Assembly (NCBI GenBank): GCA_020833025.1
Contig: JAJHRB010000033.1
Coordinates: forward strand, 1-17,195
DNA length: 17,195 bases
Reading direction: 5' to 3'
Origin: Thermoproteaceae archaeon
Lineage (GTDB): Archaea > Thermoproteota > Thermoprotei > Thermoproteales > Thermoproteaceae
The notes under the pieces are model-generated. The model did not search any database and had not been told where the DNA came from. It was given only the letters and a program-made list of their open reading frames with translations. Position numbers and translations under genes: made by a program. This document shows, in pieces, positions 774 through 16,793 of the stretch. How positions within the stretch are numbered: the stretch's first letter is position 1; each line of letters begins with the position of its first letter.

Positions 774-774
774 C

Positions 775-807: not shown

Positions 808-1212
808 GTGCGGGGCCTATCGACTGCGGCCTCCGCGGCGCTGATGCTGGCGCTGTCGGTGGCGATAGCGGTGGCGCTGTGGTGGGTGGCAGGGGGCATA
901 GTCGCCAGCACGCCGGCGCCGAGGGTGCAGCTCGACGCGTACAACAGCAAGGTCTTCGGCACGACGGCCAGGGTCGTGCTGAAGTTCGGCGAGAACGTCA
1001 AGTCCATCGACCAGATGCAGATACTGGACCAGACCGGCGCCGCGCTGGCGTCGTGCACCGCGTCGGGCGGCCCGTTCCAGGCGGGCTACAGCTACGAGTT
1101 CACGTGCAGCGGCCAGAGCGTGATCGGCGGCACGAGGCTGGTCGTGCGCGTCGCCTACACGGCGGCAGACGGCTCCAAGAAGGTCGCGAACCTGGAGTGG
1201 GCGCTGGGCTAG
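808..1212 (+). CDS. Archaeal type IV pilin (class III signal peptide), paralog 1
   Basis: MRG|LSTAASAALMLALSVAIAVALWWV: basic-Gly cleavage site followed by a hydrophobic helix. Globular beta-rich domain with a Cys pair; clearly paralogous to 1274-1696. Confidence 0.8.
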   Translation: MRGLSTAASAALMLALSVAIAVALWWVAGGIVASTPAPRVQLDAYNSKVFGTTARVVLKFGENVKSIDQMQILDQTGAALASCTASGGPFQAGYSYEFTCSGQSVIGGTRLVVRVAYTAADGSKKVANLEWALG

Positions 1213-1230
1213 CCTAGCCTAGGGAAAAAT

Positions 1231-1241
1231 CCCCCCTTTTT
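1231..1241 (+). terminator. C6T5 terminator-like tract abutting next promoter
   Basis: CCCCCCTTTTT directly followed by GGTT; the same 15-mer occurs at 9450-9464. Confidence 0.45.
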
Positions 1242-1273
1242 GGTTCCCCTTCTCGCCCGCCTCCCTTCCGGGC
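1242..1273 (+). promoter_or_regulatory. GGTT(-32) promoter motif for pilin 2
   Basis: GGTT at 1242, GTG at 1274. Confidence 0.55.
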
Positions 1274-1696
1274 GTGCGGGGCATCTCCCAGGCCGCCAGC
1301 GCGGCGCTCCTCCTCGCCCTCGCGGCGGCAGTCGCCATGGCGCTGTACCTCGCGCTCAGCGGCATGATAGCGTCCGCGCCCGTCCCGAGGGTGCAGCTCG
1401 ACCCCTACAACACCTACGTGGTGGGAAGCAAGATGTACGTCACCGTTAAGTTCGGCGCCGCCGTGGAGTCAATTGACCTCTCCGGCGTGGCCGTGCTGAA
1501 AAGCGACGGCGCCAACGTCGCGAGGAGCTGCACTTACGCCAACGGGTCGAGGCAGCCGCCCTTCATGCCCGGCGACTCCACCACGCTGGAGTGCTCGCTC
1601 TCCGGCGACCCCGGCCACCGCGTCGTCGTGAGGCTGCCCGTCATAATGCCGCGGGGCGCCAGGGCCGTCGCGCTGCTGGAGTACGTCAGGGGCTGA
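1274..1696 (+). CDS. Archaeal type IV pilin (class III signal peptide), paralog 2
   Basis: MRG|ISQAASAALLLALAAAVAMALYL; shares PRVQLDxYNxxVxG...KFGxxVxSID with pilin 1; Cys pair. Confidence 0.8.
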   Translation: MRGISQAASAALLLALAAAVAMALYLALSGMIASAPVPRVQLDPYNTYVVGSKMYVTVKFGAAVESIDLSGVAVLKSDGANVARSCTYANGSRQPPFMPGDSTTLECSLSGDPGHRVVVRLPVIMPRGARAVALLEYVRG

Positions 1697-1728
1697 TTCC
1701 AAAAGCGCACCCCCCTTTTCGGGCGCCC
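1695..1728 (+). promoter_or_regulatory. Variant (GATT, -34) promoter motif with embedded C6T4 tract
   Basis: GATTCCAAAA at 1695, CC|GTG at 1729. Confidence 0.4.
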
Positions 1729-2724
1729 GTGGTGCTCGACGCGGTCGCGCTGATAGTCCACTACCGCACCTCCAGCACCGAGGCCGCGCTCAAGGCGCTG
1801 GGGAGCCCCGAGGCGAGAAGGACGGCGGTCGCGCTGCGGCTGCGGCGCAGGAGGGGCACGCTCCTCTACCGCATCGCCGAGAGGGCGCTCTTCATGGAGG
1901 CAATGGGCGTGGACAGGAGGGTGGCGACGGAGCTCCTGGCAAGCGAGCTCAGGCTGAGGCTGGAGGACGAGCTCAGGAGGGCGAGGGAGCTCTACAACTT
2001 CGCGGTCTTCGCCGCGTCGATGGCGGTCTTCACCGCGCTGGTAGTCGGCGTGTTCCTCGCGCCGCTCTCGCCCGAGGCCGCCAGCCTGGCGTCCCTCGTG
2101 GCGGCGCTGGAGGCGGTGCCGCTGGCCGCGGTCGAGCGCCTCTGCCCGCCCGCGCGGCGGTGGAACTACGGGCTGGCGGCGGCGGCCATGGCGCCTGCCG
2201 CCCTCTCCCTCGCCGAGCCCTGGCTCTCGCTCCTGACCGTGCCGGCGGCCGCCCTCTACGGCGTCTACTACGCCCGCAGGCTGAGGGAGGCTGGGGAGGA
2301 GCTGGCGATGGCCATGAGGGGGCAGCTGACGCACGCCGAGACGGACACGGCCAGGCAGGCCGCCGAGATAATGAGGGCGGTGAGGACCTCCGGCGCCTAC
2401 GACCTGATGGCCGCCGCGGAGTACATGATGAGGGTGGCCGAGGCCCACATGAGCTCGCTGAGGAGGGAGGGGCTGATGAGGGCGCTCGTGATAGTCTCGC
2501 TGGTAATAATCGCCGCGGCGGCCGCCGCGTCGTTCTGGCCGCAGCTGGCGTACATGGCCGAGCAGGTCAAGGGGGGCCCGCTCAAGCTCTACGTCGTCAG
2601 CGTGAGGCCCGCGATCGGGGCGCTGGCGCTTGTATCAGCCGCCGTCGCCGGCAGGCTGACGGAGTCCTACGCCGCGGCGCCGCTCTACTCGCCGCTGGCG
2701 ATCGCCCAGCTCTTCGTGCCGTGA
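1729..2724 (+). CDS. Polytopic membrane protein, TadC/FlaJ (T2SS F)-like pilus platform; 331 aa
   Basis: Start reassigned from 1591 to GTG 1729 (removes the overlap with pilin 2 and fits the promoter motif). Two helical soluble segments are each followed by TM helices. It lies among pilins and upstream of the assembly ATPase. Confidence 0.55.
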   Translation: MVLDAVALIVHYRTSSTEAALKALGSPEARRTAVALRLRRRRGTLLYRIAERALFMEAMGVDRRVATELLASELRLRLEDELRRARELYNFAVFAASMAVFTALVVGVFLAPLSPEAASLASLVAALEAVPLAAVERLCPPARRWNYGLAAAAMAPAALSLAEPWLSLLTVPAAALYGVYYARRLREAGEELAMAMRGQLTHAETDTARQAAEIMRAVRTSGAYDLMAAAEYMMRVAEAHMSSLRREGLMRALVIVSLVIIAAAAAASFWPQLAYMAEQVKGGPLKLYVVSVRPAIGALALVSAAVAGRLTESYAAAPLYSPLAIAQLFVP

Positions 2725-2942
2725 ACGCGATAGTCCTCGCCCTGCTCCTCGCGGCGCTGGCCGTGGCGCTGGCGTACTACTACTTCGCGTCTGCCGTCGA
2801 GGCCGCGTCGAGGCCGCCGCAGGAGCCGTCGGTCCTCTGCGCCGTGGCGGCGGCCAGGGGCCTCTGGACGCCGAACGCGACCGGCCCGTGCGTCCTCGAC
2901 AACGAGACGGGCGCGGTGATCTACCTCTCCCCGAGCCGCTAG
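2721..2942 (+). CDS. Small single-TM protein, putative minor pilin-like; 73 aa
   Basis: GTGA overlap with the upstream stop; MNAIVLALLLAALAVALAYYYF helix; Cys pair; NAT/NET sequons. It is the 3' part of track ORF 2160..2942. Confidence 0.6.
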   Translation: MNAIVLALLLAALAVALAYYYFASAVEAASRPPQEPSVLCAVAAARGLWTPNATGPCVLDNETGAVIYLSPSR

Positions 2943-2955
2943 AGCCGCCAGCCCC

Positions 2956-2987
2956 GGTTTAACGTCGCCTTTTTCGCGCCCCCGCCC
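2956..2987 (+). promoter_or_regulatory. GGTT(-32) promoter motif
   Basis: GGTTTAAC at 2956, CC|GTG at 2988; CCTTTTT embedded at 2968-2974. Confidence 0.55.
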
Positions 2988-3278
2988 GTGCGGGGGATAG
3001 CGACGCTTCCCGTCGCGCTCGCAGTGGTGATAATCGCCGCCGCCGCGGCCTACCTGGCCTACCAGTGGCACTACGCGCAGCAGAAGGCGGCGGAGAGGGC
3101 CGCGCTCCTCGCCGCGAAGCTGAACGAGGAGCAGCAGCGCTGCCTCTCTGCGGTTGTCTCCGTCGCGGGGAACGCCACGGTCGTGGCGGTGGGAGGGGAG
3201 GCGCACGCCGGCAACTACACGGGCCTCGGCTGCTACGTTGACAGGGACGTCGTCATTCTGGTGCAATGGAGGAGGTAA
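2988..3278 (+). CDS. Putative minor type IV pilin (class III signal peptide)
   Basis: MRG|IATLPVALAVVIIAAAAAYLAY; Cys pair; NAT/NYT sequons. Confidence 0.7.
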   Translation: MRGIATLPVALAVVIIAAAAAYLAYQWHYAQQKAAERAALLAAKLNEEQQRCLSAVVSVAGNATVVAVGGEAHAGNYTGLGCYVDRDVVILVQWRR

Positions 3279-3715
3279 TAATCCTCGCGCTCTCGCTCCC
3301 GCTGGCGCTTGCCGTCATCGCGGTCGTGGGCCACGCCGTGCTGCCGGCGCTGGCCGGCGCGGCCGCCACGGCGGCCGAGTACGCGGAGCTGCGCGACGCG
3401 CCCGTGGTGCTGGTGTCCCTGGGCGGGAGGTCCGTCGCCGTCTGCGTGAACTCCACCGCGCCCAGGGCGGCTCTCGTCCACGACTGCCACGGCGGGCTCT
3501 GCCACGCGCGCGAGGCGAGGCGCGGCTGCCGCGTCAACCCCGGCGGGCTCTGCGCCGAGGGGGAGCCCGGGGGCAGGGCCGAGGGGCGGCGCGGCTGGCC
3601 CTACTGCGAGTGGTACCTCGGGCGCTACAGGGTGGGAGACGTCGTGGCGTTCGAGCTGCGGGGGGAGAGGGCCAGGGTCTTCAAGAACTACACCGTCAGG
3701 GAGCTGAGGCGCTAG
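3266..3715 (+). CDS. Single-TM, Cys-rich exported protein, putative minor pilin/accessory
   Basis: N-terminal hydrophobic helix, six Cys, overlaps the upstream gene, located in the pilus cluster. Confidence 0.55.
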   Translation: MEEVIILALSLPLALAVIAVVGHAVLPALAGAAATAAEYAELRDAPVVLVSLGGRSVAVCVNSTAPRAALVHDCHGGLCHAREARRGCRVNPGGLCAEGEPGGRAEGRRGWPYCEWYLGRYRVGDVVAFELRGERARVFKNYTVRELRR

Positions 3716-3717
3716 CC

Positions 3718-3752
3718 CGTTCCAAAACCAAAAGCGCCCCTTTTTCCCTCCC
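3718..3752 (+). promoter_or_regulatory. Variant (CGTT, -35) promoter motif
   Basis: CGTTCCAAAA at 3718, CC|GTG at 3753. Confidence 0.4.
3737..3745 (+). terminator. C4T5 terminator-like tract
   Basis: CCCCTTTTT 22 nt after the stop at 3715. Confidence 0.4.
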
Positions 3753-5165
3753 GTGAGGCTTCTGGCCGAGCTCCTCGGGCTGGGCCCCGCGAGGAGGCCG
3801 CGCGGCACTGCCTCCAGCAGGCTGTTCCTCTCCGCCGGCACGCCCACGGCGGAGTACGTTGACGTGGAGGAGGTCGAGTGGCTGGGCGTCAAGACGTCAA
3901 TTTACGTCACGGCGATGAGGACGGTCTACGTCATCGACGAGGTCGAGCTGCCCAGGGAGGCGCTGGAGGGGCTGGACGACAGGACCGCGTACTCCGCGCT
4001 CTCGCGCGCAGAGGCCGAGATGGCCAGGAGGGGCGTGGATCCCTACGCGAGCCCCAAGGAGGCCGTCGCGATAATCGAGGGGAAGCTGAGGGGGAGGCTC
4101 AGGGAGCGCGCGGGCGCGGCCGCCGCGCTCCTCTACCGCTGGTACTACGCCTACGGCACGATAACGCCGCTGCTGCTGAGCCGCCGGCTGGGCATAACCG
4201 ACGTGCTGGTGACGCTGGCGGGCAACTACGTCGAGGTGGAGTCGCACAGATACGGCGCGGGCCTGGCGACGAACCTGGAGCTCGCGGACGGGGACAGGGA
4301 GCACCTCCGCGACGTGATCTCCAGGCGCGTGGTCCCGCTCTCCGCCGCCAGGCCCTTCGCGTCCCGCTACGACGAGCAGCTCCAGGTGCGCGTCACGGCG
4401 ATAGTGCCGGACGTGGCGCCCCGGCCGGCCTACGCCTTCCGCGTGATGAACGTGACGTGGACGGCGCCGCTGTTTGTCGCGATGGGCGGCGCGGAGCCGT
4501 GGCAGATGGCCTACCTCTGCGCCCAGTGGAGGAGGTACAGGCACGTGCTGGCAGTGGGCACGCCCGGCAGCGGGAAGACCTCGCTGATAAACGCCGTGCT
4601 CTCGTGCACGCAGACGAAGAGGCGCCTGGCGATAATACAGTCCGTGCCGGAGCTGAGGGTGCCGCAGGCCTCCTTCATCGCCACCGAGCGCCACGCCTTC
4701 GGCGCGGGGATATCGGAGGTGCTGATGGCAGACCTCGTGCAGAAGTTCGGGCTGCGCGCAAACTCCGACGTGGGGATAAACGAGCTGCTGACAGAGGCGG
4801 ACACCAGGGCGTTCGTCACTGTTGCCTTCGCGGGCTTCGGCGCCGCGGCCACGCTGCACGCGACCGACGTGCAGGAGGTCCTGCTGAGGCTCAGGAGGCT
4901 CGGGGTGAGCGAGGCGGAGCTGGAGGCGCTGCTCCCCAGGCTCTACATACCCGTGATGAGGAGGGAGGTGACCGAGAGGGGGGTGAGGCGCCGCGTCGCG
5001 GCCATATACGCGCCGAGGGACGGCAGGCACGAGCCCGTGACGGAGGGGGAGGCGCTGGAGGACCCCGAGGTGAGGGAGTGGGCGAGAATAATCGCCGAGG
5101 CGGCGAGGTCGCCGGCGCTCTGGAGCCCCGAGGCGTGGGTCTCGTACCTCAGGCAGTTCGACTAG
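3753..5165 (+). CDS. Type II/IV secretion ATPase (TadA/VirB11/FlaI-like), pilus assembly ATPase
   Basis: Walker A GTPGSGKT; Asp-box-like IIQSVPEL; LRANSDVGINE (Walker B region); TLHA His-box; preceding N-domain 'DVLVTLAGNYVEVE...' typical of this family. Confidence 0.8.
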   Translation: MRLLAELLGLGPARRPRGTASSRLFLSAGTPTAEYVDVEEVEWLGVKTSIYVTAMRTVYVIDEVELPREALEGLDDRTAYSALSRAEAEMARRGVDPYASPKEAVAIIEGKLRGRLRERAGAAAALLYRWYYAYGTITPLLLSRRLGITDVLVTLAGNYVEVESHRYGAGLATNLELADGDREHLRDVISRRVVPLSAARPFASRYDEQLQVRVTAIVPDVAPRPAYAFRVMNVTWTAPLFVAMGGAEPWQMAYLCAQWRRYRHVLAVGTPGSGKTSLINAVLSCTQTKRRLAIIQSVPELRVPQASFIATERHAFGAGISEVLMADLVQKFGLRANSDVGINELLTEADTRAFVTVAFAGFGAAATLHATDVQEVLLRLRRLGVSEAELEALLPRLYIPVMRREVTERGVRRRVAAIYAPRDGRHEPVTEGEALEDPEVREWARIIAEAARSPALWSPEAWVSYLRQFD

Positions 5166-5166
5166 C

Positions 5167-5198
5167 CGTTGCTAATCTCTCCCCGCGCGCCGGCCTCC
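5167..5198 (+). promoter_or_regulatory. Variant (CGTT, -32) promoter motif
   Basis: CGTTGCTAAT at 5167, CC|ATG at 5199. Confidence 0.5.
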
Positions 5199-5480
5199 AT
5201 GCCCAGGCAGCTGGTCCCCGGCCAGGCGCAGAGGGAGGAGGCGCCAGCGCAGCAGCCCCAGCGCCCGCCGGCGCCGGCCGTCCTCGACCTCGAGCCCTAC
5301 CTGAGGGTCTACGCGGAGTGCAAGAGGCGCTCCTACGACTGCAAGCCCGTCGTCCAGCTGATCGCGGACCAGATACGCGACCACGTGAGGGCGGCGGTGA
5401 TGCTGGAGCTGCAGCGCCTCGGCCTCGACAAGTCAATCATCCAGGACCTCAAGCAGATATGCATAGACCTGGAGGCGTGA
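5199..5480 (+). CDS. Hypothetical protein, 93 aa (Gln/Pro-rich N-terminus, helical C-terminus)
   Basis: ATG 5199 fits the promoter motif; the stop overlaps the next GTG. Confidence 0.6.
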   Translation: MPRQLVPGQAQREEAPAQQPQRPPAPAVLDLEPYLRVYAECKRRSYDCKPVVQLIADQIRDHVRAAVMLELQRLGLDKSIIQDLKQICIDLEA

Positions 5481-5737
5481 AGATCGAGAGGGAGCTGAAG
5501 AGGCGCGGGGAGGACGTAGAGCCCGAAAAGCGCCGCCTCCCAAAGACGAGGAAGGCCTTCGAGAGGCTGCTCAAGTCGCTGGCTAAGAAGTACGGCCAGC
5601 CGTACTACGTCGTGAGGAACACGGTGCAGCAGTACGGCATAACGTACACGCTGAGGGCGCTTGAGGTGACCCCGCCGCGCGAGTCAACGCTCTCCAGGCT
5701 CCTCAAGAGGCTGAGGGGGGCATGGTCTCGAAGGTAA
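5477..5737 (+). CDS. Small basic hypothetical protein, 86 aa, possibly DNA-binding
   Basis: GTGA overlap with the upstream stop, GGAGG upstream; K/R-rich (MKIERELKRRGEDVEPEKRRLPKTRK...). It is the 3' end of track ORF 3878..5737. Confidence 0.6.
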   Translation: MKIERELKRRGEDVEPEKRRLPKTRKAFERLLKSLAKKYGQPYYVVRNTVQQYGITYTLRALEVTPPRESTLSRLLKRLRGAWSRR

Positions 5738-6444
5738 TAGCCGCCGTCAGCAACAAGGGGGGCGTCGGGAAGACCACCGTGCTGGCGAGCATTGCCTTCG
5801 CGCTCGCCAAGGAAACCAGGTTCCGCGCCGTCTTTGTCGACGTGACGCCGGACGCCGCCGGCTCGGCGATGCTGGCGCCCGGCTGCCACGTCCGCTTCGG
5901 CACGTACGCGTACCTCTCCGGCGTTGACGCGATAGAGATGTGCACGCAGGAGGCAGACGGCGCCCTCGCCGACACCCTGCCCCCGGGCCCCGCGCCGCCG
6001 GGCGCCAGGCTGAGGGGAGACAGGCTGGTGAGCCTGCTGGAGATGCTGAGGGCGGAGTACAACATCGCGCTCGTGGACCTCCCCGGCGCCGACGAGGCCC
6101 ACAGCGACGTCATCGCCGCGGCCGTGAGAGCGGCGGACATGTACCTCCTCGTCGCGGAGCCCGCCAGCGTGAACGTGGCCCACGGCCTCAGGCAGAGACT
6201 GCCGCAGGACAGGCCCGTCGTCGCCGTCCTCAACAAGTTCGTTGACGGCGCGCCGGGAAAGCACGAGATAGAGGCGATGGGAACCAGCAAGTTCGGCAAG
6301 TTCGCCTACGTGATACCCTTCGAGGGCCCCGTCCACAACGCCGTCGTGCAGAGAAAGCTGCCAGTCCTGGTCAAGGGGGCCAGGCTCGTGGAGGTCGTGG
6401 ACCGCATTGCGGCAGACCTCCAGCGCCTAATACTCCACGTCTAG
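5722..6444 (+). CDS. parA: ParA/MinD-family ATPase
   Basis: Deviant Walker A KGGVGKTT near the N-terminus; VFVDVTPD; IALVDLPG; VVAVLNK; C-terminal IPFE...AVVQRKLP. Confidence 0.8.
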   Translation: MVSKVIAAVSNKGGVGKTTVLASIAFALAKETRFRAVFVDVTPDAAGSAMLAPGCHVRFGTYAYLSGVDAIEMCTQEADGALADTLPPGPAPPGARLRGDRLVSLLEMLRAEYNIALVDLPGADEAHSDVIAAAVRAADMYLLVAEPASVNVAHGLRQRLPQDRPVVAVLNKFVDGAPGKHEIEAMGTSKFGKFAYVIPFEGPVHNAVVQRKLPVLVKGARLVEVVDRIAADLQRLILHV

Positions 6445-6446
6445 GC

Positions 6447-6478
6447 GGTTTCCCAGGGCCCTCCCCGCGGCGCCGGCC
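6447..6478 (+). promoter_or_regulatory. GGTT(-32) promoter motif
   Basis: GGTT at 6447, CC|GTG at 6479. Confidence 0.55.
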
Positions 6479-8728: not shown

Positions 8729-8738
8729 CCCTCCCCCT

Positions 8739-8840
8739 CAGGGCCCTACTCGCAGGGGTCTGAGGCAGGGGTCTTCAGCGCAGGGGTGATTACCCCTGCG
8801 GTGAATTCCCCTGCGCCAGGCCCCTGATGCAGGGCCCCTG
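8739..8840. repeat. Palindromic array A: four CAGGG(G) boxes facing four (C)CCCTG boxes
   Basis: Forward boxes start at 8739, 8753, 8766, 8781; reverse boxes end at 8798, 8813, 8826, 8840. Every pair sums to 17579, giving exact dyad symmetry at 8789/8790. Confidence 0.9.
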
Positions 8841-8860
8841 AGAGGGCGCGGGCCGGGGCC

Positions 8861-8892
8861 GGTTGAACGCGCCCGCTGGCGCTCCCGCCGCC
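8861..8892 (+). promoter_or_regulatory. GGTT(-32) promoter motif for wHTH gene
   Basis: GGTTGAAC at 8861, CC|ATG at 8893. Confidence 0.55.
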
Positions 8893-9423: not shown

Positions 9424-9449
9424 CCCGCGCCCTCCCTCCCGCAATTCCT

Positions 9450-9460
9450 CCCCCCTTTTT
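9450..9460 (+). terminator. C6T5 terminator-like tract abutting next promoter
   Basis: CCCCCCTTTTT then GGTT; identical to 1231-1245. Confidence 0.45.
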
Positions 9461-9492
9461 GGTTGCTCGCCCGCCCTCACCCCGGGCCCGCC
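9461..9492 (+). promoter_or_regulatory. GGTT(-32) promoter motif for HerA
   Basis: GGTT at 9461, CC|ATG at 9493. Confidence 0.55.
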
Positions 9493-10824
9493 ATGGAGGG
9501 CTTCGTGATAGGCGTGCACGGCAGAGTAGCGCGCATCGCCGGCTTCTACCGCCCCGGCGCGCTGCTGGAGAGCGAATCCGGCGCGAGGATGCTGGTCGTG
9601 GGGAGGCGCAAGGCGCTCCACCCGCATTTCATGGAGGCCCTGAGATTGGCAAGAGACGGCGAGCCGGTCCCTGCCGAGCACGAGGTCGTCAGCGTCTCCA
9701 GGGCGCTGATTGTGAGCGAGCAGGTGCCGGAGCCCGGCGAGCGGGTGCGCGAGGTCGAGTGGCGCGCCGAGAGGCCCGGCGTCTACGGCCCCGAGGGCGA
9801 GGTGAACCTCTTGAAGCACGAGGGCATTCCGCACGTTACTATCATTGCGTCAACCGGAATGGGCAAGACCACGCTGGTCAAGATGCTGTTAAGGCAGGCA
9901 GCCAGCGCCGGCTTCCGGCACATCATCGTGCTGGACATGCACGACGAGTACGGCGACGTCGTGAGGGAGCTGGGCGGCGAGGCCGCGCCGCCGGTCCTGC
10001 CGCTCTGCGACCTCACGGACCACGAGCTCCTGGCCGCGACGGGCCTCCTGCGCGTAGCCACGTCGCCGATCAGGATGATGCGGTACTTGCGCTACTTCGT
10101 TCGCGCGTTCTGCAGGCTGGCGGAGAAAACCGAGATAGAGAATCTCAGGGCCGCGCTCGAGAGGGCAGGCGACGCGATGCTGCTACTTGATGTAATCAGC
10201 CCGGACGCAAAGGCGCTTGACGAGAGAGAGACCCTGACGCGCGAGTTCATAAGGGCATTGAGGGACGAGCTCGGCCCGACCGCGTTCAACGCGCTGCGCG
10301 AGGTGGTGCGCAAGGACGAAGAGAGAATGGCCGCGACGATGATGTACCTGATGTGGGCCGTGGAGCACGCCCCGCGCGTCGAGCTGCACTGGGAGCTCCC
10401 CGACATCGTTGCAATTCAGCTCCTCGAGTTCCGCAGCATCTTTGCCATGAGCGACATAGCGCTCGCCGTGATGTCGTATATATTCCGCCGCCTAATGGAG
10501 CTCAAGGAGCCGGCGCTCGTGGTGATAGAGGAGGCGCCGAGACTGCTGCAGGACGAGACGGCGCGACGCAACCTGGAGCTGTTTCTCTCGCAGGCGCGCA
10601 AGTTCGGGGTGACGGCAGTTCTGGTCAGCCAGACGCCCCACGACCTCGTGCAGAACACGAGACTCGTGCTCGGCCGCGTGCAGAACGTGGCGTGGGCGAG
10701 GAAGCTGGCAGAGCTCGCCCCGCAGATGCCCGGGGAGCTGGCAAGGCTGCTGCCGCAGCTCGGCCGCGGGGAGTTCGCGCACCTTGACGGGCAGCGCGTC
10801 GTGCCGCTGCGGGTGATCGTATGA
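9493..10824 (+). CDS. herA: HerA-family helicase/DNA translocase; 443 aa
   Basis: N-terminal beta-rich HAS-barrel-like region; HVTIIASTGMGKTT Walker A; IVLDMHDEY; VVIEEA Walker B; ARKFG..LVSQTP motif. It is a paralog rather than necessarily the core repair HerA. Confidence 0.8.
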   Translation: MEGFVIGVHGRVARIAGFYRPGALLESESGARMLVVGRRKALHPHFMEALRLARDGEPVPAEHEVVSVSRALIVSEQVPEPGERVREVEWRAERPGVYGPEGEVNLLKHEGIPHVTIIASTGMGKTTLVKMLLRQAASAGFRHIIVLDMHDEYGDVVRELGGEAAPPVLPLCDLTDHELLAATGLLRVATSPIRMMRYLRYFVRAFCRLAEKTEIENLRAALERAGDAMLLLDVISPDAKALDERETLTREFIRALRDELGPTAFNALREVVRKDEERMAATMMYLMWAVEHAPRVELHWELPDIVAIQLLEFRSIFAMSDIALAVMSYIFRRLMELKEPALVVIEEAPRLLQDETARRNLELFLSQARKFGVTAVLVSQTPHDLVQNTRLVLGRVQNVAWARKLAELAPQMPGELARLLPQLGRGEFAHLDGQRVVPLRVIV

Positions 10825-11312
10825 TTACCGCCGCGGACGCTGGCGTGCGCATCGCCAGGTGCTACTCGCTCGAGACGCGCCGCGTCGAGACCGTGGGCGT
10901 CGCGGCCATAGCCGCCGTGACGTCTTCTGGCGCTGTTGACGTGATACACTTCAGCGTCACGTCGCCGGAGACCCGCGACTTTGAGTTAGAGGTGTTGCGC
11001 CACTACAGCCGCACGGCAGAGATTTGCGTCGTTGACGGGCCGCCCGCGGCAGTCTGCAGGAAGAACGTGGGCATCATAAAGTCCGGAAACCCCGCCGCCG
11101 GCTGGCGCTGCGTTGCGCTCGGGCCGTACGCTGTCTGCGCCGACTTCGAGCTTAGCGTCGACATCGCGAGACTGGCAATCAGGCTAAACGCGCTGGCGCA
11201 CAGAGTGGCGCACGAGGCGGCAAGGACGCTGTTCCGCCGCGAGCTGCTGAGGCGCCGCTGCGTGCTGGCAGAGGGCGCCCACGTCGTGCCGGAGCTGTCG
11301 TACTACCATTAA
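10821..11312 (+). CDS. Miniature NurA-like (RNase H fold) nuclease; 163 aa
   Basis: ITAADAG, FELEVL, ICVVDGP and LAHRVAHEAA match the order of NurA catalytic motifs; ATGA overlap with herA; GGGTGA SD. Confidence 0.55.
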   Translation: MITAADAGVRIARCYSLETRRVETVGVAAIAAVTSSGAVDVIHFSVTSPETRDFELEVLRHYSRTAEICVVDGPPAAVCRKNVGIIKSGNPAAGWRCVALGPYAVCADFELSVDIARLAIRLNALAHRVAHEAARTLFRRELLRRRCVLAEGAHVVPELSYYH

Positions 11313-11316
11313 TCCT

Positions 11317-11324
11317 CCTTTTTT
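11317..11324 (+). terminator. Oligo-T terminator-like tract
   Basis: CCTTTTTT 5 nt after the stop at 11312, in a pyrimidine-rich run. Confidence 0.5.
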
Positions 11325-11346
11325 CCCTCCCCCTCTTTCTGCGCTT

Positions 11347-11447
11347 CAGGCCCCTGTAGCAGAGGTCTGGGACAGGGGTCTTCATCGCAGGGGTAACTAC
11401 CCCTGGGACGAAAGCCCCTGCCCCAGGGCCCTGCCCTCAGACCCCTG
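11347..11447. repeat. Palindromic array B, homologous to array A
   Basis: Forward boxes at 11347, 11360, 11373, 11388; reverse boxes end at 11405, 11420, 11433, 11447 (pair sums 22793, outermost 22794). The core 11373-11405 is 30/33 identical to 8766-8798. Confidence 0.9.
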
Positions 11448-11480
11448 TACCTGTGTCAGGGGGTTACTTTCAGCCCACAG

Positions 11481-11492
11481 AAAGGCTTTTAT
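11481..11492 (+). promoter_or_regulatory. Canonical-looking archaeal BRE-TATA (AAAGGC TTTTAT)
   Basis: Purine run followed by TTTTAT; the only such element I found upstream of a gene here. Confidence 0.5.
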
Positions 11493-11561
11493 GGTCTCGC
11501 AATGTCGGGCTTCGTGGCGCAGGGAACCGTCCAGACACAGGTCCAGGAGGTGCCGGTCTCG

Positions 11562-12506
11562 ATGGCGCTGAGGGAGGTCGAGGAGGTCCTCAAGAAAATG
11601 GGCTACGGCACGAAGCCCCTCTTCGAGAGCCCCTACGAGGTGAGGCGCAGGTGCGCCCGGCTGGAGGGCCGCACGCGCTGGAGGAGGACGCCCGACCTCG
11701 AGCGCGTGATGCGCCTGGTGGGCGCGTCCAACATTGCCGCCGTCCGCCTCCTCGCGCCGCACCTCGCCGAGCCCGTCTGCGTCCCGCCGCCGGAGTTCCT
11801 GCCCGCCGCCGCGGGCCTCGTGCCGGTCTACGAGGTCAGGTGCGAGGAGCCGCGGAAGTGCGCTGACGTCGCCGAGGCCGCGGCCGCCGCGCTCGGCATC
11901 GAGCTGCCGGAGATGGTCAGGCGGATGCTCCTGGGCGCCCCCGAGGAGGCGGGGCCCGCCGAGGCGCCCCCGCCACCTCCCAAGGCGGAGGCCGCCCCGG
12001 CAGCGCCGGCCCCCGAGACAGGGGCGGAGGCTCCCGAGACGGAGAGAAGGCCGGAGCCGGCCGCCCCGGAGGGCGCGTGGATAGAGCTGGTCGCCGACGT
12101 CGCCCGGCAGAGGCCGGAGGCCGTCGAGGCGGCGCTCAGGGCGGCCGGCTTCGAGTGGCTCGCGCCCGCCATCAGGGACGCCACCACGAGGAGGGCGGTG
12201 CAGGAGCTGCTCTCCGACCCCGAGCTCGCGAGGACCCTCGCCGAGGGAGGCAAGGCAATCAAGGAGCTGCTGAGGGCACCGCCGCCGGCGGCCGGGCCGG
12301 CGCCCCAGCACTGGCCTAAGAGAGACGCCGAGCTCCTAGCGAGGGAGCTCCCGCGCTCGCGCGACGCCGCGGACCTCGCCGCGAGGCTCTTCGCCGCGCT
12401 CAGCGGCTGCGACCTGGACGCCGCGAGGTCCGTCATCGACGCGCTGGCGTCGGCGCCCTGCGACCAGCTGAGGCAGCTCGGCAGGCTGCTCTCGAGGGCG
12501 CGCTGA
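11562..12506 (+). CDS. Hypothetical multi-domain protein with Pro/Ala/Glu linkers; 314 aa (alternative starts 11502, 11514)
   Basis: GGAGGTG SD at 11546-11552, 9 nt before ATG 11562; in frame with track ORF 11502..12506; the stop overlaps the next ATG. Confidence 0.65.
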   Translation: MALREVEEVLKKMGYGTKPLFESPYEVRRRCARLEGRTRWRRTPDLERVMRLVGASNIAAVRLLAPHLAEPVCVPPPEFLPAAAGLVPVYEVRCEEPRKCADVAEAAAAALGIELPEMVRRMLLGAPEEAGPAEAPPPPPKAEAAPAAPAPETGAEAPETERRPEPAAPEGAWIELVADVARQRPEAVEAALRAAGFEWLAPAIRDATTRRAVQELLSDPELARTLAEGGKAIKELLRAPPPAAGPAPQHWPKRDAELLARELPRSRDAADLAARLFAALSGCDLDAARSVIDALASAPCDQLRQLGRLLSRAR

Positions 12507-12913
12507 TGTCCTGCCGCCACTTCTACGCGCTGCTGCTGCTCGGCGGAAAGCGGTCCGGCGGCCCGCCCGTGCCGTGGGGCGCCGTGGCCGAGTCGCTGCG
12601 GAGGGTCGTCTCGTGGTACGTGGAGAGCAGGGTCCCGCCGGAGAGCTACTACGTCACGCTGTCGCCGCCGCTCGTGCGGCGCGCGGTCTACGAGTACGCG
12701 TCCGAGCATAAGTGCAGGTACGCCGAGATGTGGAAAGAGCGCCTCAGGGACGGCACGAGGACCGTCATGCGCGTGTTAATGCACGAGGCGCGGTGCTGGG
12801 CGAGGCGCTGCCCCGAGCCGCGCCCTGAGGTCCTCACCGTGCCCCGCGCCTGGCTGCTGGAGTACCTAAGGCGCCTGGGCGGCCCCTGCTCGCGGGGGCC
12901 TAACAGCTTCTAG
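12506..12913 (+). CDS. Hypothetical protein, 135 aa
   Basis: TGATG stop/start overlap; normal amino-acid composition; followed by a T-tract. Confidence 0.65.
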   Translation: MSCRHFYALLLLGGKRSGGPPVPWGAVAESLRRVVSWYVESRVPPESYYVTLSPPLVRRAVYEYASEHKCRYAEMWKERLRDGTRTVMRVLMHEARCWARRCPEPRPEVLTVPRAWLLEYLRRLGGPCSRGPNSF

Positions 12914-12921
12914 CCTTTTTT
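12914..12921 (+). terminator. Oligo-T terminator-like tract
   Basis: CCTTTTTT immediately after the stop at 12913. Confidence 0.5.
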
Positions 12922-12942
12922 CTAATTTTCTAATTTTTCTGA
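12918..12942 (+). repeat. AT-rich TTTTCT(A/G)A tandem repeat x3
   Basis: TTTTCTAA at 12918 and 12926, TTTTCTGA at 12935. Confidence 0.7.
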
Positions 12943-12949
12943 TCCTCCC

Positions 12950-13606
12950 GTGCTCCTCTACACGAGACGCAGGGTCGAGGAAATTGCCAGGCAGTACGAG
13001 GAGAGAATCAGGAGGCTGGAGGGGGAGCTCGAGAGGCTGAGGGCCGAGGCCGAGTTCTGGCGGCGGCGCGCGGAGTTCCTTGAGCGATCCTACCGCGAGG
13101 AGGTGGTGGAGCTGAGGGCCTACGCGAGGCGGCTGGAGGAGTCGTGCGCCTCAAGCCCCCCGGCCCCGCCGCTCGCGGACGAGGAGAGACTCGCGATGGC
13201 AGTGGAGATAGACCACCTGCGGAGGACCGTCTCCGGGCTGCAGAGGAGGCTGGCCGAGTGCGAGAGGCGGGCGGAGAAGTGGCTCGACAGCTGGCACGAG
13301 CTCTTCATGCGCTACACGCCGCTGGAGCGCGAGCGCGTGCAGTGGGCAGCGGCGCACGCGGGCCACGTCGTCATACGCGTCGAGCCCTTCGAGGAGCTCC
13401 GCGTTATTCTCAACGCGCGGGGGCAGCGGCTGGAGCTGTTAAGGCGGCGGGACGGGAAGTACATCACGCACTACATCCCGCTCCCGCCCGGCGCTGGCCC
13501 CCTCGCGGCGGTCCCAGAGCTGGGGATAGCCGCGTGGAGGCCCGCCCGCCCCGACGCGATAAGGCGGCTGGCCGAGGACCTCGCGCGCAGAATGGCCTCG
13601 CTGTAG
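12950..13606 (+). CDS. Hypothetical coiled-coil protein, 218 aa
   Basis: E/R/L heptad-rich N-terminal two-thirds with a small beta-rich C-terminal domain; CC|GTG start. Confidence 0.65.
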   Translation: MLLYTRRRVEEIARQYEERIRRLEGELERLRAEAEFWRRRAEFLERSYREEVVELRAYARRLEESCASSPPAPPLADEERLAMAVEIDHLRRTVSGLQRRLAECERRAEKWLDSWHELFMRYTPLERERVQWAAAHAGHVVIRVEPFEELRVILNARGQRLELLRRRDGKYITHYIPLPPGAGPLAAVPELGIAAWRPARPDAIRRLAEDLARRMASL

Positions 13607-13607
13607 C

Positions 13608-13640
13608 GGTTGCAAATCGCGCTGCGGCGCGCCGCGCGCC
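13608..13640 (+). promoter_or_regulatory. GGTT(-33) promoter motif
   Basis: GGTTGCAAAT at 13608, CC|GTG at 13641. Confidence 0.55.
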
Positions 13641-14573
13641 GTGAGCCGCGCGTCGTTCCACCACGTCCTGAGCCCCCACGGGTGGGCGGCCTGGCGCTTC
13701 CCGGCCCCCGCGGACCAGCAGGCGGTCGAGGAGGCATTCGCCGCGCGCGGCGAGATACCGAGGGCGCGCCCCGAGCCCCCCAGGCCCTGGCTCTGCGTCT
13801 ACCTCTGGCCGGCCCTGGAGCTGCCGCGTTGGAGGACGATGGACGTAGGCCACCACGCCAAGGCCATCACGCCGTCAGTGACGTCCGCGTGCCTCGCGCA
13901 TGGCGAGCCCCCGAGGTCGGGGGCCGTCAGGTGGGCGGAGCTCAAGCTGGGGGGCAGGCACTACCGCGTCACGCTCGTCCCGGACGCTGCAATGGCCGCG
14001 CCGCCGGGAGGATTTGCCCACAGGCTCTACATACTGTGCAAGGCCAGCGAGTGCGACCTCTCGCCTCTCTTCGCCCTCGCCGGCCCCCGCGACTTCCCCG
14101 AGCTCGCCGCGGCCGTGACGCGGGCCTACTACGTCGGGCCGGAGCCGCACCTGCGGTGGGTTCCCGGCTGCGAGTACGTTGACTGCGGCAACGTCAGGGG
14201 GATCAGGGAGGGAGAGGAGGCCCTCGCGAAGACGGCGCTCGACATCCTGGCCGACGAGCGAAGGCTGAGGGCGCTCATAAGGCTCACGCACGACCTCTCG
14301 CCGGACGCGCGCGCCGAGGGCTTCGAGCTGGGCCTCTGGACCGTCAGCCCGCGGGAGGCGCCGGGCGCTGACGGCCTGTGGAGGGTGCTGGAGGCGCACG
14401 TCCAGAGGCGGGACCTGGCCGCCGTCGAGGACGCCATCGCGACGCTGAGGAGGCTGCTGGCTGGCGAGAGAGTGGAGGGCGAGTTCACCACGGCGGCCAG
14501 CCTGGCGCTGATGTACATAGCGCACATGGTGCCGTTCCCGCGCATCACGGACAGGCTGAGGCTCCCGGCGTGA
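13641..14573 (+). CDS. Hypothetical protein, 310 aa
   Basis: Long ORF with normal composition, preceded by the promoter motif; no family recognised. Confidence 0.65.
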   Translation: MSRASFHHVLSPHGWAAWRFPAPADQQAVEEAFAARGEIPRARPEPPRPWLCVYLWPALELPRWRTMDVGHHAKAITPSVTSACLAHGEPPRSGAVRWAELKLGGRHYRVTLVPDAAMAAPPGGFAHRLYILCKASECDLSPLFALAGPRDFPELAAAVTRAYYVGPEPHLRWVPGCEYVDCGNVRGIREGEEALAKTALDILADERRLRALIRLTHDLSPDARAEGFELGLWTVSPREAPGADGLWRVLEAHVQRRDLAAVEDAIATLRRLLAGERVEGEFTTAASLALMYIAHMVPFPRITDRLRLPA

Positions 14574-15151
14574 GGTACCTGCTCCTCGCGCTCTCGGAGA
14601 TATCGCGCAGGCGCTACCGCGCCGACCTCGCGGCGCCCCTCTGGCTCTCGCGCCTCCTCGGCATTCCCCCGCGCGCGGCCCTGGCGCTGGGCCTTGAGCC
14701 GCACCTCTGGCCGCTGGCCCTCTGGCGGTCCGAGCCGGAGTGCAGCGCGCCGCCCTGGCCCGACCCCTACACGGGCGCGATACTGACGGCCGTGAGGGGC
14801 GGCTGCGAGGAGGTCAGGGCGAGCCTGCAGGGCGGGCTCACGGAGAGCGAGGAGGAGAGGCACCTCGTGCTGACCGCGGCGTCGCTCGACGGGGTCAGGG
14901 TGCTCCATCCGGAGGGCGGGGCGAGGTGGCGCGTCATGCCGCTGGACGAGATACGCGGGGAGGCCGCCCGCTGGCTGGGGGACAGGCTGGCGGAGCTCTG
15001 CGCGCCGATGATAAGCCCGAAGCTCGTGGCGGAGGCGCGCGAGTACGCGGCGCTGGCGGCGCTGGGAGCGCTGAGGGCGGCCCCCGGCGGGTACTACGCG
15101 CCATCGCCGCAGCTCCTGCTCCTCGCCTGCGTTTGTTTCAACCCTTCTTGA
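14570..15151 (+). CDS. Hypothetical protein, 193 aa
   Basis: GTGA overlap with the upstream stop; start reassigned from 14378 to 14570. Confidence 0.6.
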   Translation: MRYLLLALSEISRRRYRADLAAPLWLSRLLGIPPRAALALGLEPHLWPLALWRSEPECSAPPWPDPYTGAILTAVRGGCEEVRASLQGGLTESEEERHLVLTAASLDGVRVLHPEGGARWRVMPLDEIRGEAARWLGDRLAELCAPMISPKLVAEAREYAALAALGALRAAPGGYYAPSPQLLLLACVCFNPS

Positions 15152-15197
15152 GGTTCAGCGCCGGGAGCCCCCAGCGCCCCCGGCACCTCTCCCCTAG

Positions 15198-15207
15198 CCC
15201 CCTTTTT
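15198..15207 (+). terminator. C5T5 terminator-like tract
   Basis: CCCCCTTTTT three nt before the GGTT of the next promoter. Confidence 0.45.
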
Positions 15208-15210
15208 ATC

Positions 15211-15243
15211 GGTTTTACAAGCGGGGCGCGGTCCCGGCGCGCC
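15211..15243 (+). promoter_or_regulatory. GGTT(-33) promoter motif
   Basis: GGTTTTACAA at 15211, CC|GTG at 15244. Confidence 0.55.
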
Positions 15244-15978
15244 GTGACGAAGGCCTCCAAAGAGGGGAGGGCCAGCGTGGCGGCCGTCCTCGCGGAGCTG
15301 GGCCTCTACAGCCCGGCGGGATCGGGCATCTACGTCATTTACGGCGAGCCCGCGACGGGCAAGACCACGCTCGCCGCCAGGCTGCTGGAGGAGGCCTCCC
15401 GCGAGGGCGCGCCGGCCGTCTACATCGCGACCGAGCCAAACGTGCGGCTCTACGGGCAGTGGCAGAAGATCAAGTCGCTCCTGCCGGCGAGGGTGAAGTG
15501 CGACGGCGTGGAGGTGGACGCGGTGCAGTACCACGACAGCTACACGACGCTGATGTACGCCGCGCTCAAGGCCCTGCAGTGCAAGAGTCTCGTCATGGCG
15601 ATCGACAGCGTCACGGCGCTGGCGCTCCACGAGCAGGCCCGCCGCATGGCGGAGACCGGGAGGCTGGAGATACTGCCGATAATACGCGAGGTCAGCGCGT
15701 TCGCGAACGCGTTCGCGCAGCTGATAGCAAGCCGCCTTGCCTCCGAGGAGGGGAGGCAGGCCCAGGTCTACCTCGTGGCCCAGGCGAGGGCGGCCATAGG
15801 GCAGCCCTGGCACGGCGAGCCCCTCGCGCCGAGCTTTGCCTTGCGCGCGCAGCACAACGTGGGCGCGTGCGCCCGGCTCATCGTCCTCAACAGCGGCGAG
15901 AGATTGCTCAAGGTGGTCTGGCACAGGGACGCGAGGTACGCAGGCAAGGCGGCTAAGATACGCCTGGAGCCGCTCTAG
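15244..15978 (+). CDS. RecA-superfamily ATPase (RadB/aRadC/KaiC-like single domain); 244 aa
   Basis: IYVIYGEPATGKTT Walker A; VYIATE; MAIDSVTAL Walker B; VYLVAQAR motif; no RadA N-terminal HhH domain. Confidence 0.75.
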   Translation: MTKASKEGRASVAAVLAELGLYSPAGSGIYVIYGEPATGKTTLAARLLEEASREGAPAVYIATEPNVRLYGQWQKIKSLLPARVKCDGVEVDAVQYHDSYTTLMYAALKALQCKSLVMAIDSVTALALHEQARRMAETGRLEILPIIREVSAFANAFAQLIASRLASEEGRQAQVYLVAQARAAIGQPWHGEPLAPSFALRAQHNVGACARLIVLNSGERLLKVVWHRDARYAGKAAKIRLEPL

Positions 15979-15983
15979 GGGGC

Positions 15984-15993
15984 AAAAAAGAGG
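15984..15993 (-). terminator. Terminator-like tract for the convergent minus-strand gene
   Basis: Reads CCTCTTTTTT on the - strand just after the TAG at 16002-16000. Confidence 0.5.
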
Positions 15994-15999
15994 CGGGGG

Positions 16000-16793
16000 C
16001 TAGGGCCCGCCGGCGAGCCGCTGAATCTCCTCGAAGGGCACCTCGTTGAGCTTTCTGCTCCAAATTACAACGTATCTGTTTCTGGAACAGAAGCGATATA
16101 GCGGCGTCTCGCACGGCGAAACAACAATTGGCTCGAAGGCCAAGAGCTCTCTCGTTTCGAGGTAGCGATTGACGCTAATGATATAAGGTCTCATCATGGC
16201 GGACCACGCCTCGCCGTAGCGCTCGTTCAGCACGAACGCCAGCGCATCATCAAGCATAATAGGACTAATTATGTAAGGCCGCAGAACGTACAGCAGCCCG
16301 ACCACAAGGCGGCGGATGCCCTCGTCGTAACGCTTGAGGCACAGCGGAATGCCAATCTTGCTGCCGTCAACAAACCGCTGAAGCATTCGCAATCTTAGCT
16401 TGGCCCATCTACTCACGTCTGGTGGGTAGTTTCTCTCGCTCCACTCGATCAGATCGCTCAGGGTATTCGCCGAGGCCTCCTGCAGCAAATCTAGGCTCAC
16501 CCTAAAGCCGCGCTCCACCGTGAAGTGCAAGACGCTGCTAATGTGTGACACGAGGTACCTCTCGGCGCCCTCCGGTACCCCGACTTCTAACACCTCCCCC
16601 TCCTCGCAGTCCTTGACCCTCACGAACAGCGTGTTTAGACCCTCGCGCCGCGAGACGTTATACAGCGCTCTCAAAAACGTCGTTTTCCCCGACCCCGGCC
16701 GGCCGGTTAGTGGGCCCCGCGCGGGTCTGCCCCGGCCCACCGGGGCCAGGCCGCTATTAGCTGTCTCAGTATCTTCTCGGCCCTCCCTCCCAT
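16000..16793 (-). pseudogene. P-loop NTPase split by a -1 frameshift near 16715 (pseudogene or sequencing error); about 264 aa if repaired
   Basis: ATG 16793 (GGTT at -32, CC|ATG) reads MGGRAEKILRQLIAAWPRWAGADPRGAH* (stop 16709-16707). The adjacent frame continues LTGRPGSGKTT...IMLDDA to TAG at 16000. Confidence 0.55.

Follow-up and report, generated by a model that had tools for sequence, protein, structure and literature searches.

The question raised by this locus is whether a set of type IV pilus genes and the DNA-motor and recombination-type genes lying next to it form one system, and to which known machinery such a system is related. The DNA analysed here (the window, 17,195 bases) is the entire contig C94 of a metagenome-assembled genome that its database homologs assign to Pyrobaculum (MAG; G000, 126 contigs, 1.56 Mb, completeness 93.9%). 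In the labels used below, L denotes metagenome or related contigs, G genomes and C contigs of the host MAG; g07 is the pilus ATPase, g09 the MinD/ParA protein, g10 the VirB4-like ATPase, g12 HerA, g13 a nuclease candidate of 163 amino acids (aa) and g17 a conserved 310-aa protein. An earlier interpretation, made without database searches (the sequence-only reading), had proposed a possibly undescribed island for pilus-coupled DNA transfer. An undescribed pilus-linked island fits the analysis better than a wholly new machine: we lean towards an island that encodes a pilus-linked relative of Ted and Ced, the conjugation-like DNA-transfer systems of archaea.

The pilus gene set is kept in a fixed order with the genes for the VirB4/TedB-like ATPase, g17, a RadA paralog, a P-loop NTPase and an FtsK-like ATPase. 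The left half has the same order on the related contigs L021, L022/L028, L024/L030, L026, L027, L031 and L023: large surface proteins, pilin, platform, a 133-aa membrane protein, three small pilin-like proteins, the pilus ATPase, two small proteins, MinD and the VirB4-like ATPase. On all five contigs that extend 10 kb further downstream there follow a g17 homolog, the RadA paralog, the divergent P-loop gene and the FtsK-like ATPase. These relatives are about 55% and 98% identical to the window and come from several hot-spring studies; no RNA dataset was listed among the sequencing runs that contain the element. The synteny comparison suggested with the sequence-only reading thus finds the pilus and DNA-motor genes kept together in at least six metagenome contigs.

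The VirB4-like ATPase g10 consists of a coiled-coil N-terminus, two transmembrane (TM) segments at residues 114-140 and 253-273, and an ATPase part of the FtsK-HerA type. It had been described as a membrane-anchored VirB4/VirD4/HerA-type ATPase, and the two TM segments together with the Pfam matches in Table 1 confirm this. A TedB-family protein of Vulcanisaeta aligns with it at 25% identity over 457 aa (BLASTP 4e-16; phmmer 2.5e-15). It has 49 database cluster relatives, mostly from hot-spring metagenomes, and all the named ones belong to Pyrobaculum or Thermoproteus. The FtsK-like ATPase is cut by the right end of the window. Contig C94 overlaps C105 by 127 bp, and the whole gene corresponds to L021 18613-19935, with a weak FtsK_SpoIIIE match; its homologs sit in the Ted loci of P. 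calidifontis and Vulcanisaeta. The locus therefore combines a VirB4-type ATPase, g10, with second ATPases of the FtsK/VirD4 type, namely the 440-aa FtsK-like protein and HerA. The RecA-superfamily ATPase, previously taken for a RadB-like RecA paralog, has the RadA paralog SSO2452, RecA and PH0186 as its closest solved structures; it matches a Sak4-like phrog and is kept in the relatives. The 243-aa P-loop gene is conserved in the relatives and in G010. Searches of the PDB, the Atlas and Pfam gave no match for g17.

The Ted locus of P. calidifontis (G017) encodes ParA, TedB (685 aa, two TM segments), a 300-aa ATPase, TedC, the seven-TM TedA and a giant protein. The 300-aa ATPase is homologous to the FtsK-like family of the window, and TedC bears an AVA↓QA signal, as described in PMC9905601. 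Two Vulcanisaeta chromosomes contain a single operon-like run of three pilin-like proteins, a TadC-like protein, a T2SSE ATPase (9e-23 to g07), MinD, a 701-aa VirB4-like protein, a 1444-aa polytopic protein and a 445-aa FtsK-like ATPase. The VirB4-like protein of this run matches P. calidifontis TedB at 7e-42. As judged from the sequences, the Vulcanisaeta chromosomal loci share the skeleton of the window's family, and this common skeleton, with its TedB-family VirB4-like gene, makes the island family a probable pilus-linked relative of Ted.

The published Ted loci (Beltran et al. 2023, PMC9905601) resemble the window in several points: ParA/MinD immediately precedes a VirB4-like ATPase with two TM segments, the FtsK-like ATPase has a homolog, and HerA is found in the vicinity. 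The window's relatives also share with them a small two-TM protein bearing a signal peptide and a large polytopic one, both located after VirB4. The window differs in that it has no TedC/TedA-like gene and that g10 is very distant from P. calidifontis TedB. It also has a full type IV pilus kit upstream, which is absent from the Ted paper, where type IV pili, VirB11 and TadC are unmentioned. Furthermore, Ted was described as a "domesticated" chromosomal locus, whereas the family of the window is patchy and island-like. Ted loci are reported to hold ParA, HerA and Rad50, and the proposal has been made that their single-stranded DNA comes from HerA-NurA (PMC9905601).

Apart from the genes of the window, the host encodes another MinD-TedB pair on contig C15. 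There, at 7633-10647 (L050), a 198-aa MinD and a 668-aa membrane VirB4-like protein (4e-70 to P. calidifontis TedB) are preceded by secreted proteins and small proteins with an N-terminal TM segment. This TedB family is itself patchy, occurring in 6 of 15 congeners, and multi-copy, with five copies in G006 and three in G008, which sits oddly with a purely "domesticated" system.

The pilus genes of the window were previously termed a Tad-like pilus. A pilus is present, but it is better described as an archaeal type IV pilus of the 4G kind found in Thermoproteales. The assembly ATPase g07 matches Pfam T2SSE with 33.6 bits (2.2e-8; cut-off 24.9) and the NCBIfam TadA model at 1.3e-15, and its closest solved structures are A. 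fulgidus GspE (2oap, 7e-10) and FlaI. The closest solved structure to g09 is the archaeal MinD 1hyq, and g09 matches the ParA of the Ted locus at 4.8e-7; these results and its Pfam families agree with the ParA assigned from the sequence alone. Class III signals were read by eye as [KR]-G, a small residue and then a hydrophobic helix; in the relatives, the homolog of pilin 1 has a longer leader (...R-A-R-G↓I-E). Processing of the window's pilins by the host is plausible, because a chromosomal pilin on contig C72 has the same type of signal (M-R-G-L-T). A search of the 94%-complete MAG for an A24 prepilin peptidase (PF01478) found none. The surface protein at the left edge, anchored by a C-terminal TM segment (residues 231-249), has its N-terminus on contig C107. 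It is 97% identical to L021 396-2510, and homologs occur in every relative as well as in G004 and P. arsenaticum.

In the literature, the archaeal type IV filament subsystem 4G of Pyrobaculum, Thermoproteus and Vulcanisaeta is presented as an elaborate pilus that includes MinD, large adhesin-like proteins and numerous minor pilins (Makarova et al. 2016, PMC4858521; PMC13705601). Ted and 4G are the known systems closest to the window. The window is like 4G in encoding PilA-type pilins, minor pilins with Cys residues, a diverged ATPase, a probable platform that has likewise diverged, a large C-terminally anchored surface protein, MinD/FleN and two small cytoplasmic proteins in one locus. The latter, of 93 and 86 aa, are separate genes in all relatives and fit the "two small intracellular proteins" of 4G (PMC4858521). 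The likeness was judged by the published description; the reference families are arCOG05609 (ATPase), arCOG05611 (platform) and arCOG05608 (MinD). The window differs in that its copy is an accessory paralog and in the adjoining VirB4/HerA-type ATPase with its link to DNA transfer: neither of the two papers mentions VirB4, HerA or conjugation, and no role in DNA handling has been proposed for 4G.

The genes of the window share a motif at the promoter position, as the sequence-only reading had claimed. The motif [CG]GTT occurs 30-37 nucleotides (nt) upstream of 12 of the 21 start codons, compared with a mean of 0.58 and a maximum of 4 for random positions (2000 trials). This is the position of the B recognition element and TATA box (BRE/TATA) for leaderless mRNAs. 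Relatives with a lower G+C content (GC) have AATTC and an A/T-rich run at an equal distance; the motif is therefore taken as a conserved promoter element of the island family, shifted here towards G and C. The common motif at the promoter position argues for co-regulation of the genes. A genome-wide comparison of GGTT at -32 is heavily diluted by false starts.

Relatives and window differ in the genes that follow VirB4. Between it and the right-hand genes, the relatives have three membrane proteins. One, of 260-295 aa, has 4-5 TM segments. Another, of 117-124 aa, consists of a signal peptide, two hydrophobic helices, a basic loop and a conserved C-terminal C-P-F-L-Y-C-P. The third, of 1538 aa (~1540), starts with six TM segments, followed by a Cys-rich extracellular part, three further TM segments and a long cytoplasmic tail. 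These membrane genes are situated at L024 12425-18245, L028 2849-8741 and L026 7815-13767. The sequence-only reading was right that the window has no VirB2-like pilin and no VirB6/CedA, but its picture of a system free of type IV secretion parts does not hold for the family, since the relatives carry proteins of VirB2/TedC and VirB6/TedA topology in this place. In the window and in L021 the place is occupied by the winged-helix, HerA and nuclease genes together with three variant-specific genes. No homolog of the three membrane proteins of the relatives was found anywhere in the host MAG. The accessory genes of the relatives are mostly without a Pfam match.

In L028 the HerA-nuclease pair is found 5 kb further downstream, and the other relatives do not have it at the window's position. 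To judge from these gene orders, it is not a fixed part of the island family, contrary to the earlier proposal that made HerA-NurA a built-in component. The "second HerA" of that proposal is real: g12 matches DUF87 with 50 bits (cut-off 23.2), its closest solved structures are the HerA proteins 8ziq, 8xau and 4d2i, and it also matches the PADLOC HerA models. Its partner g13 was called a NurA-like nuclease, which is correct at the level of fold and by analogy but not of family membership. Pfam NurA does not include g13, and a genome-wide search with PF09376 at E up to 10 returned three other genes instead. The AlphaFold2 (AF2) model of g13 (pLDDT 90.4) has an RNase-H-like fold, with VIA-align Z scores of 10.1 to 2qh9, 9.4 to EndoV and 9.1 to Sulfolobus NurA 2ygk, and Foldseek matches it to EndoV, UvrC-C, TM1739 and NurA. 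Residues D6, E55, D72-G73, N123, H127 and H154 are invariant in a tiny family of six representative clusters (exhaustive HMMER search). The homologs, distant ones included, always come after a HerA-like gene with overlapping stop and start; HerA and a g13-type nuclease form a conserved two-gene unit. The pair resembles HerA-NurA in the overlap of a HerA gene with a gene for an RNase-H-fold nuclease that has D-E-D-H-type invariant residues. It differs in that g13 is about half the size of NurA, lies outside the Pfam family and scores equally against EndoV and 2qh9. Prediction of a complex of g12 and g13 gave a score of 0.00, uninformative either way. Elsewhere, the host MAG has three ordinary NurA genes and one HerA. 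Paralogs of the winged-helix protein are found on contigs C49 and C79.

Two palindromic repeats occupy the two long intergenic regions that bound the winged-helix, HerA and nuclease genes. The two copies align, and changes in the arms preserve the symmetry. Copy a, as single-stranded DNA, folds at -39.5 kcal/mol (z -7.45), far better than shuffled sequences. There are 12 such arrays in the MAG, with a motif spacing of about 13 nt, often near contig ends; the motif density genome-wide is 0.77 per kb. Eight of the 12 are on seven contigs with 70-72% GC and the rest on C80, C108, C121 and C122; besides the window, the array-bearing contigs are C4, C23, C52, C80, C105, C107, C108, C109, C121 and C122. 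Metagenome contigs break and accumulate at the palindrome, where the depth has a local peak. Three Logan contigs from two hot-spring runs of one study join 8786 to 11398, linking the palindrome centres and skipping the cassette. The joint possibly represents a cassette-free form. This form is not counted as proven, because the shorter side of the joint, 27-30 nt, lies within the repeat and may belong to another repeat copy. The repeats may be operators of the winged-helix protein, recombination sites, both, or an origin-like site. A 142-aa gene without a Pfam match, multi-copy in the MAG, adjoins a palindromic repeat in three of its copies. It is located at L028 18082-18510, on C80, C108, C122, C54 and C89, and at L059 16743-17165 in a TedB-family locus of G008; the arrays of C80, C108 and C122, though not that of C121, share their contig with a copy.

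Judged from its sequence, the window forms the central part of an accessory Pyrobaculum island that spans at least 35 kb. The island is probably mobile, because it is patchily distributed, has a GC above that of its flanks and is decayed in P. aerophilum and P. arsenaticum. Strong homologs of g10 are present in 4 of 17 congeners (G010, G005, G003 and G012) and one sister-genus MAG, and those of g07 in two of the 17 (G010 and G004); g07 shares no more than 33% identity with the other ATPases found in the order. The presence/absence comparison in close relatives that had been called for thus shows a patchy pattern. Decayed remnants were found in P. aerophilum and P. arsenaticum (fragments alone in both), G003 and G004. 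G004 has the pilus genes without VirB4; in G003 the platform and minor pilins are fused to VirB4, and the ATPase and MinD are absent. The GC of the element is above that of the flanks in three genomes. Contig C94 has 70.0% GC against 62.6% for the genome, close to the top among the contigs, and the element in the MAG is split over contigs of 70-72% GC (C107, C94, C105 or C4, C53). The plasmid records gave only a P-loop match to TraD, and phage records and IMG/VR gave nothing, so that the block matches no plasmid or phage record; a gene-for-gene match to a described crenarchaeal conjugative element would have spoken against the sequence-only reading.

The remnant in P. aerophilum is an 8-kb island of 63-69% GC in a background of 41-53% GC (L016 12000-20000; G012:C1 about 2,116,000-2,124,000), with a truncated VirB4-like homolog and several secreted proteins. 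Contigs C23 and C109 are perhaps further pieces of this or a sister element. They have 71-72% GC and carry further DNA genes (C23, L032 1809-2954; C109, L035 577-2301 and 1739-2770), namely a 382-aa Rad51/RadA-family protein (7.9e-19), a methyltransferase, a DEAD/ResIII helicase and a g17 paralog. The possibility that the two ends of C94 are one gene split by a circle was rejected, as the homologs of the ends are unrelated and the contig has no terminal overlap that would close it.

By analogy with the known systems, the pilus would provide contact between cells or with surfaces, as Ups does for Ced, and MinD would position the apparatus, as VirC1 does. The membrane-bound VirB4-like ATPase would move DNA across the membrane, with the FtsK-like ATPase perhaps in the part of a coupling protein. 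HerA and the minimal RNase-H-fold nuclease could resect DNA ends in the manner of HerA-NurA, and the RadA paralog could act on the transferred single strand. In the variant represented by the window, the repeat-bounded winged-helix-HerA-nuclease cassette would have replaced the membrane genes of VirB2/VirB6 topology found in the relatives. As the window is without candidates for the channel and the conjugative pilin, its copy may depend on channel parts supplied in trans, for example by the MinD-TedB locus of C15, or may be defective in transfer.

Several observations weigh against a mobile, Ted-related transfer system. Between g10 and P. calidifontis TedB only the P-loop and Walker B segments match, so that the kinship is distant. 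The window has no VirB2/TedC-like gene and no VirB6/TedA-like (seven-TM) gene, and in the relatives the 117-aa and 1538-aa proteins are candidates for these roles by topology alone. The 117-aa family has no similarity to TedC or to entries of the PDB, nor the N-terminus of the 1538-aa protein to TedA; nevertheless, the Ced and Ted proteins are likewise without sequence similarity to each other, according to the authors of the Ted study (PMC9905601). The platform protein is a probable TadC-type protein, an assignment of moderate strength. Pfam is silent on it, although PF00482 stays below its cut-off for every gene of the MAG; the AF2 model is poor (pLDDT 55), and hhalign gave no significant match of the family to the TadC of C72 or the TadC-like protein of Vulcanisaeta. 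On the other side, 26 of its 30 ESM-Atlas feature matches are Thermoproteota clusters partly annotated as T2SSF (score 0.91, 179-180 features shared). As regards mobility, no tyrosine integrase (PF00589) was found on the contig, in agreement with the sequence-only reading, or in the remnant-bearing P. arsenaticum and P. aerophilum. A relaxase, again as noted earlier, a replication gene and an att site were not found in the incompletely assembled element, and there is no tRNA in the window or near any related locus. Mobility is for these reasons read from distribution and composition alone. Furthermore, on L025 housekeeping genes (49-54% GC) come directly next to the MinD-VirB4 pair (64-66% GC), the downstream DNA genes being absent, and more distant VirB4 relatives are without pilus genes. 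The link between VirB4-like and RecA-type genes extends past the pilus-bearing clade: at L063 7565-13467, a VirB4-like relative of 45% identity is accompanied by an FtsK/HerA-like ATPase and a 196-aa Rad51-family protein, pilus genes being absent.

These last gene arrangements bear on another explanation, in which the left half, MinD and the VirB4-like protein included, builds and positions a complex adhesive pilus or surface structure and the DNA genes are unrelated cargo. It would account for the end of the L025 block at MinD-VirB4, for the pilus genes retained in G004 without the VirB4-like gene, and for the published description of 4G as a pilus for which no DNA role was put forward (PMC4858521; PMC13705601). 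However, ATPases of the VirB4/TedB/CedB type are the motors of DNA-transfer systems (PMC9905601). In addition, g17, the RadA paralog, the P-loop gene and the FtsK-like gene follow pilus and VirB4 on each of the five far-reaching contigs, and the FtsK-like ATPase has its homologs in bona fide Ted loci. We consider this explanation unlikely. Less likely still is a mosaic accessory island in which the HerA-nuclease cassette, and perhaps other ATPases, serve antiviral defence outside any transfer pathway. The cassette brings a regulator of its own and lies between repeats; it is found elsewhere in L028, is missing at the window's position in the other relatives and may be skipped by the short-sided contig joint. 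The structures closest to g12 include defence HerA proteins, and the PADLOC HerA models match it. These matches reflect generic ATPase similarity, however, g13 matches no PADLOC model, and HerA is common in the Ted loci themselves (PMC9905601). A defence role would also cover 2.6 kb alone and leave the skeleton of pilus, VirB4 and RadA paralog unexplained.

That the pilus apparatus itself is the conduit for DNA uptake or export, driven by a conjugation-type motor, so that the window variant would work without VirB2/VirB6 genes, is the least likely option for a transfer system and in our estimate improbable. If true, it would join natural competence and conjugation in a hybrid of which no domain of life has a described example. 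A provirus or virus-like element, whose HerA/FtsK-type ATPases package the genome and whose surface proteins are virion or receptor-binding parts, is very improbable. The nearly unidirectional gene order, the many ORFan genes and the PHROG "terminase large subunit" matches of g10 and g12 (2e-10) would suit it, but those matches span ATPase motifs alone, no capsid or other viral hallmark was found, and phage records and IMG/VR are without a match. A complete pilus kit with a host-type prepilin signal is, moreover, not a known feature of virions.

A pilus-linked relative of Ted would be of interest because Ced and Ted have been presented as domesticated chromosomal machinery, and mobile relatives in Thermoproteales are unknown so far. 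Thermoproteales lack Ups, which leaves their mechanism of cell contact open. In the island family, a patchily distributed and probably co-regulated set brings a TedB-like motor and recombination-type ATPases together with a type IV pilus of its own. This suggests that 4G pili may serve as the contact organelle of Ted-like systems, that mobile or recently mobile Ted-like versions may exist in Pyrobaculum, and that the combination of HerA and a minimal RNase-H nuclease may represent a DNA-processing module that can be exchanged. In transjugation of Thermus thermophilus, the competence uptake of the recipient reportedly depends on a pilus. A HerA/FtsK-type ATPase on a mobile element aids DNA donation there (TdtA, ICETh1; PMC5365140), in a bacterial system that encodes donor and uptake functions separately. 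Ups and Ced of the Sulfolobales follow the same logic as the island, with a pilus for contact, a VirB4-like ATPase for DNA and a tie to recombination (PMC9905601); they are separate chromosomal loci and have no detectable sequence similarity to the genes of the window. The integrative and conjugative elements of Thaumarchaeota (Krupovic et al. 2019, PMC6563490) also combine VirB4- and VirD4-type ATPases with TadC, a FlaI-type ATPase and pilins. They belong to another phylum, no sequence match to them was seen, and they have integrases, TFIIB, ParB and a prepilin peptidase, none of which was found in the window.

The features of the window are collected in Table 1.

Table 1. Genes and repeats of the 17,195-base window, with their positions and the evidence for each assignment.
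Feature	Position	Strand	Remarks
Surface protein, C-terminus	3-773	+	last 256 aa of a ~704-aa secreted protein, adhesin or S-layer-like
Pilin 1	808-1212	+	class III signal M-R-G↓L-S, hydrophobic helix, two Cys
Pilin 2, paralog of pilin 1	1274-1696	+	M-R-G↓I-S, then hydrophobic helix
Polytopic membrane protein, 331 aa, probable TadC/T2SSF platform	1729-2724	+	position conserved in relatives
Minor-pilin-like protein, 73 aa	2721-2942	+	N-terminal TM segment, two Cys
Minor pilin	2988-3278	+	M-R-G↓I-A/S signal (M-R-G↓I-A here), two Cys
Cys-rich minor-pilin-like protein, 149 aa	3266-3715	+	N-terminal TM segment
Type IV pilus assembly ATPase g07, 470 aa, PilB/FlaI/TadA family	3753-5165	+	Pfam T2SSE
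Small cytoplasmic protein, 93 aa	5199-5480	+	no TM segment
Small cytoplasmic protein, 86 aa	5477-5737	+	no TM segment
MinD/ParA-family ATPase g09	5722-6444	+	Pfam CbiA 1.4e-9, AAA_31
VirB4/TedB-like ATPase g10, 749 aa	6479-8728	+	Pfam TrwB_AAD_bind, DUF87
Palindromic repeat copy a	8753-8840	.	~100 bp, 3x CAGGGG then 3x CCCCTG
Winged-helix DNA-binding protein, probable regulator	8893-9423	+	Pfam HTH_24 2.5e-4, phrog_25408 4e-11
HerA-family ATPase g12	9493-10824	+	DUF87 5e-13
RNase-H-fold nuclease candidate g13, 163 aa	10821-11312	+	start overlaps HerA stop
Palindromic repeat copy b	11351-11462	.	~100 bp, 3x CAGGGG then 3x CCCCTG
Three cytoplasmic proteins (334 aa, 135 aa, 218-aa coiled coil)	11502-13606	+	homologs in L021 only
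Conserved 310-aa protein g17 (~315 aa in relatives)	13641-14573	+	directly before RadA paralog in relatives
193-aa protein	14570-15151	+	homolog L028 18666-19229
RecA-superfamily ATPase, RadA paralog/KaiC-like	15244-15978	+	weak Pfam KaiC and AAA_16
P-loop NTPase, 243 aa, divergent	16000-16731	-	Walker A; weak AAA_30 only
FtsK/HerA-like ATPase, N-terminus, 113 of 440 aa	16857-17195	+	continues on contig C105

Coding is on the plus strand throughout 3-15978 and on the minus strand only at 16000-16731 (third-position GC frame map), so that the "one co-oriented block" of the sequence-only reading holds up to 15978 and not for the gene after it. That reading counted six P-loop NTPases, one of them frameshifted. 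There are six complete ones, and a seventh is truncated by the contig end; none is frameshifted, since all ATPase reading frames are intact and the gene boundaries of the window agree with independent gene calls on the 98%-identical metagenome contig L021. The Rfam and tRNA scans of the window were empty. For the 334-, 135- and 218-aa proteins, family searches yielded coiled-coil noise alone. Overlapping frames occur at 5166-5737 and 14378-15978; they represent distinct genes, all of which are kept in the relatives. One TAG and 33 nt (5163-5198) lie between the pilus ATPase gene g07 and the small gene after it, which continues in the same reading frame; L022 shows the same arrangement. The spacing looks like a coincidence rather than readthrough, because L024 does not have this frame arrangement.

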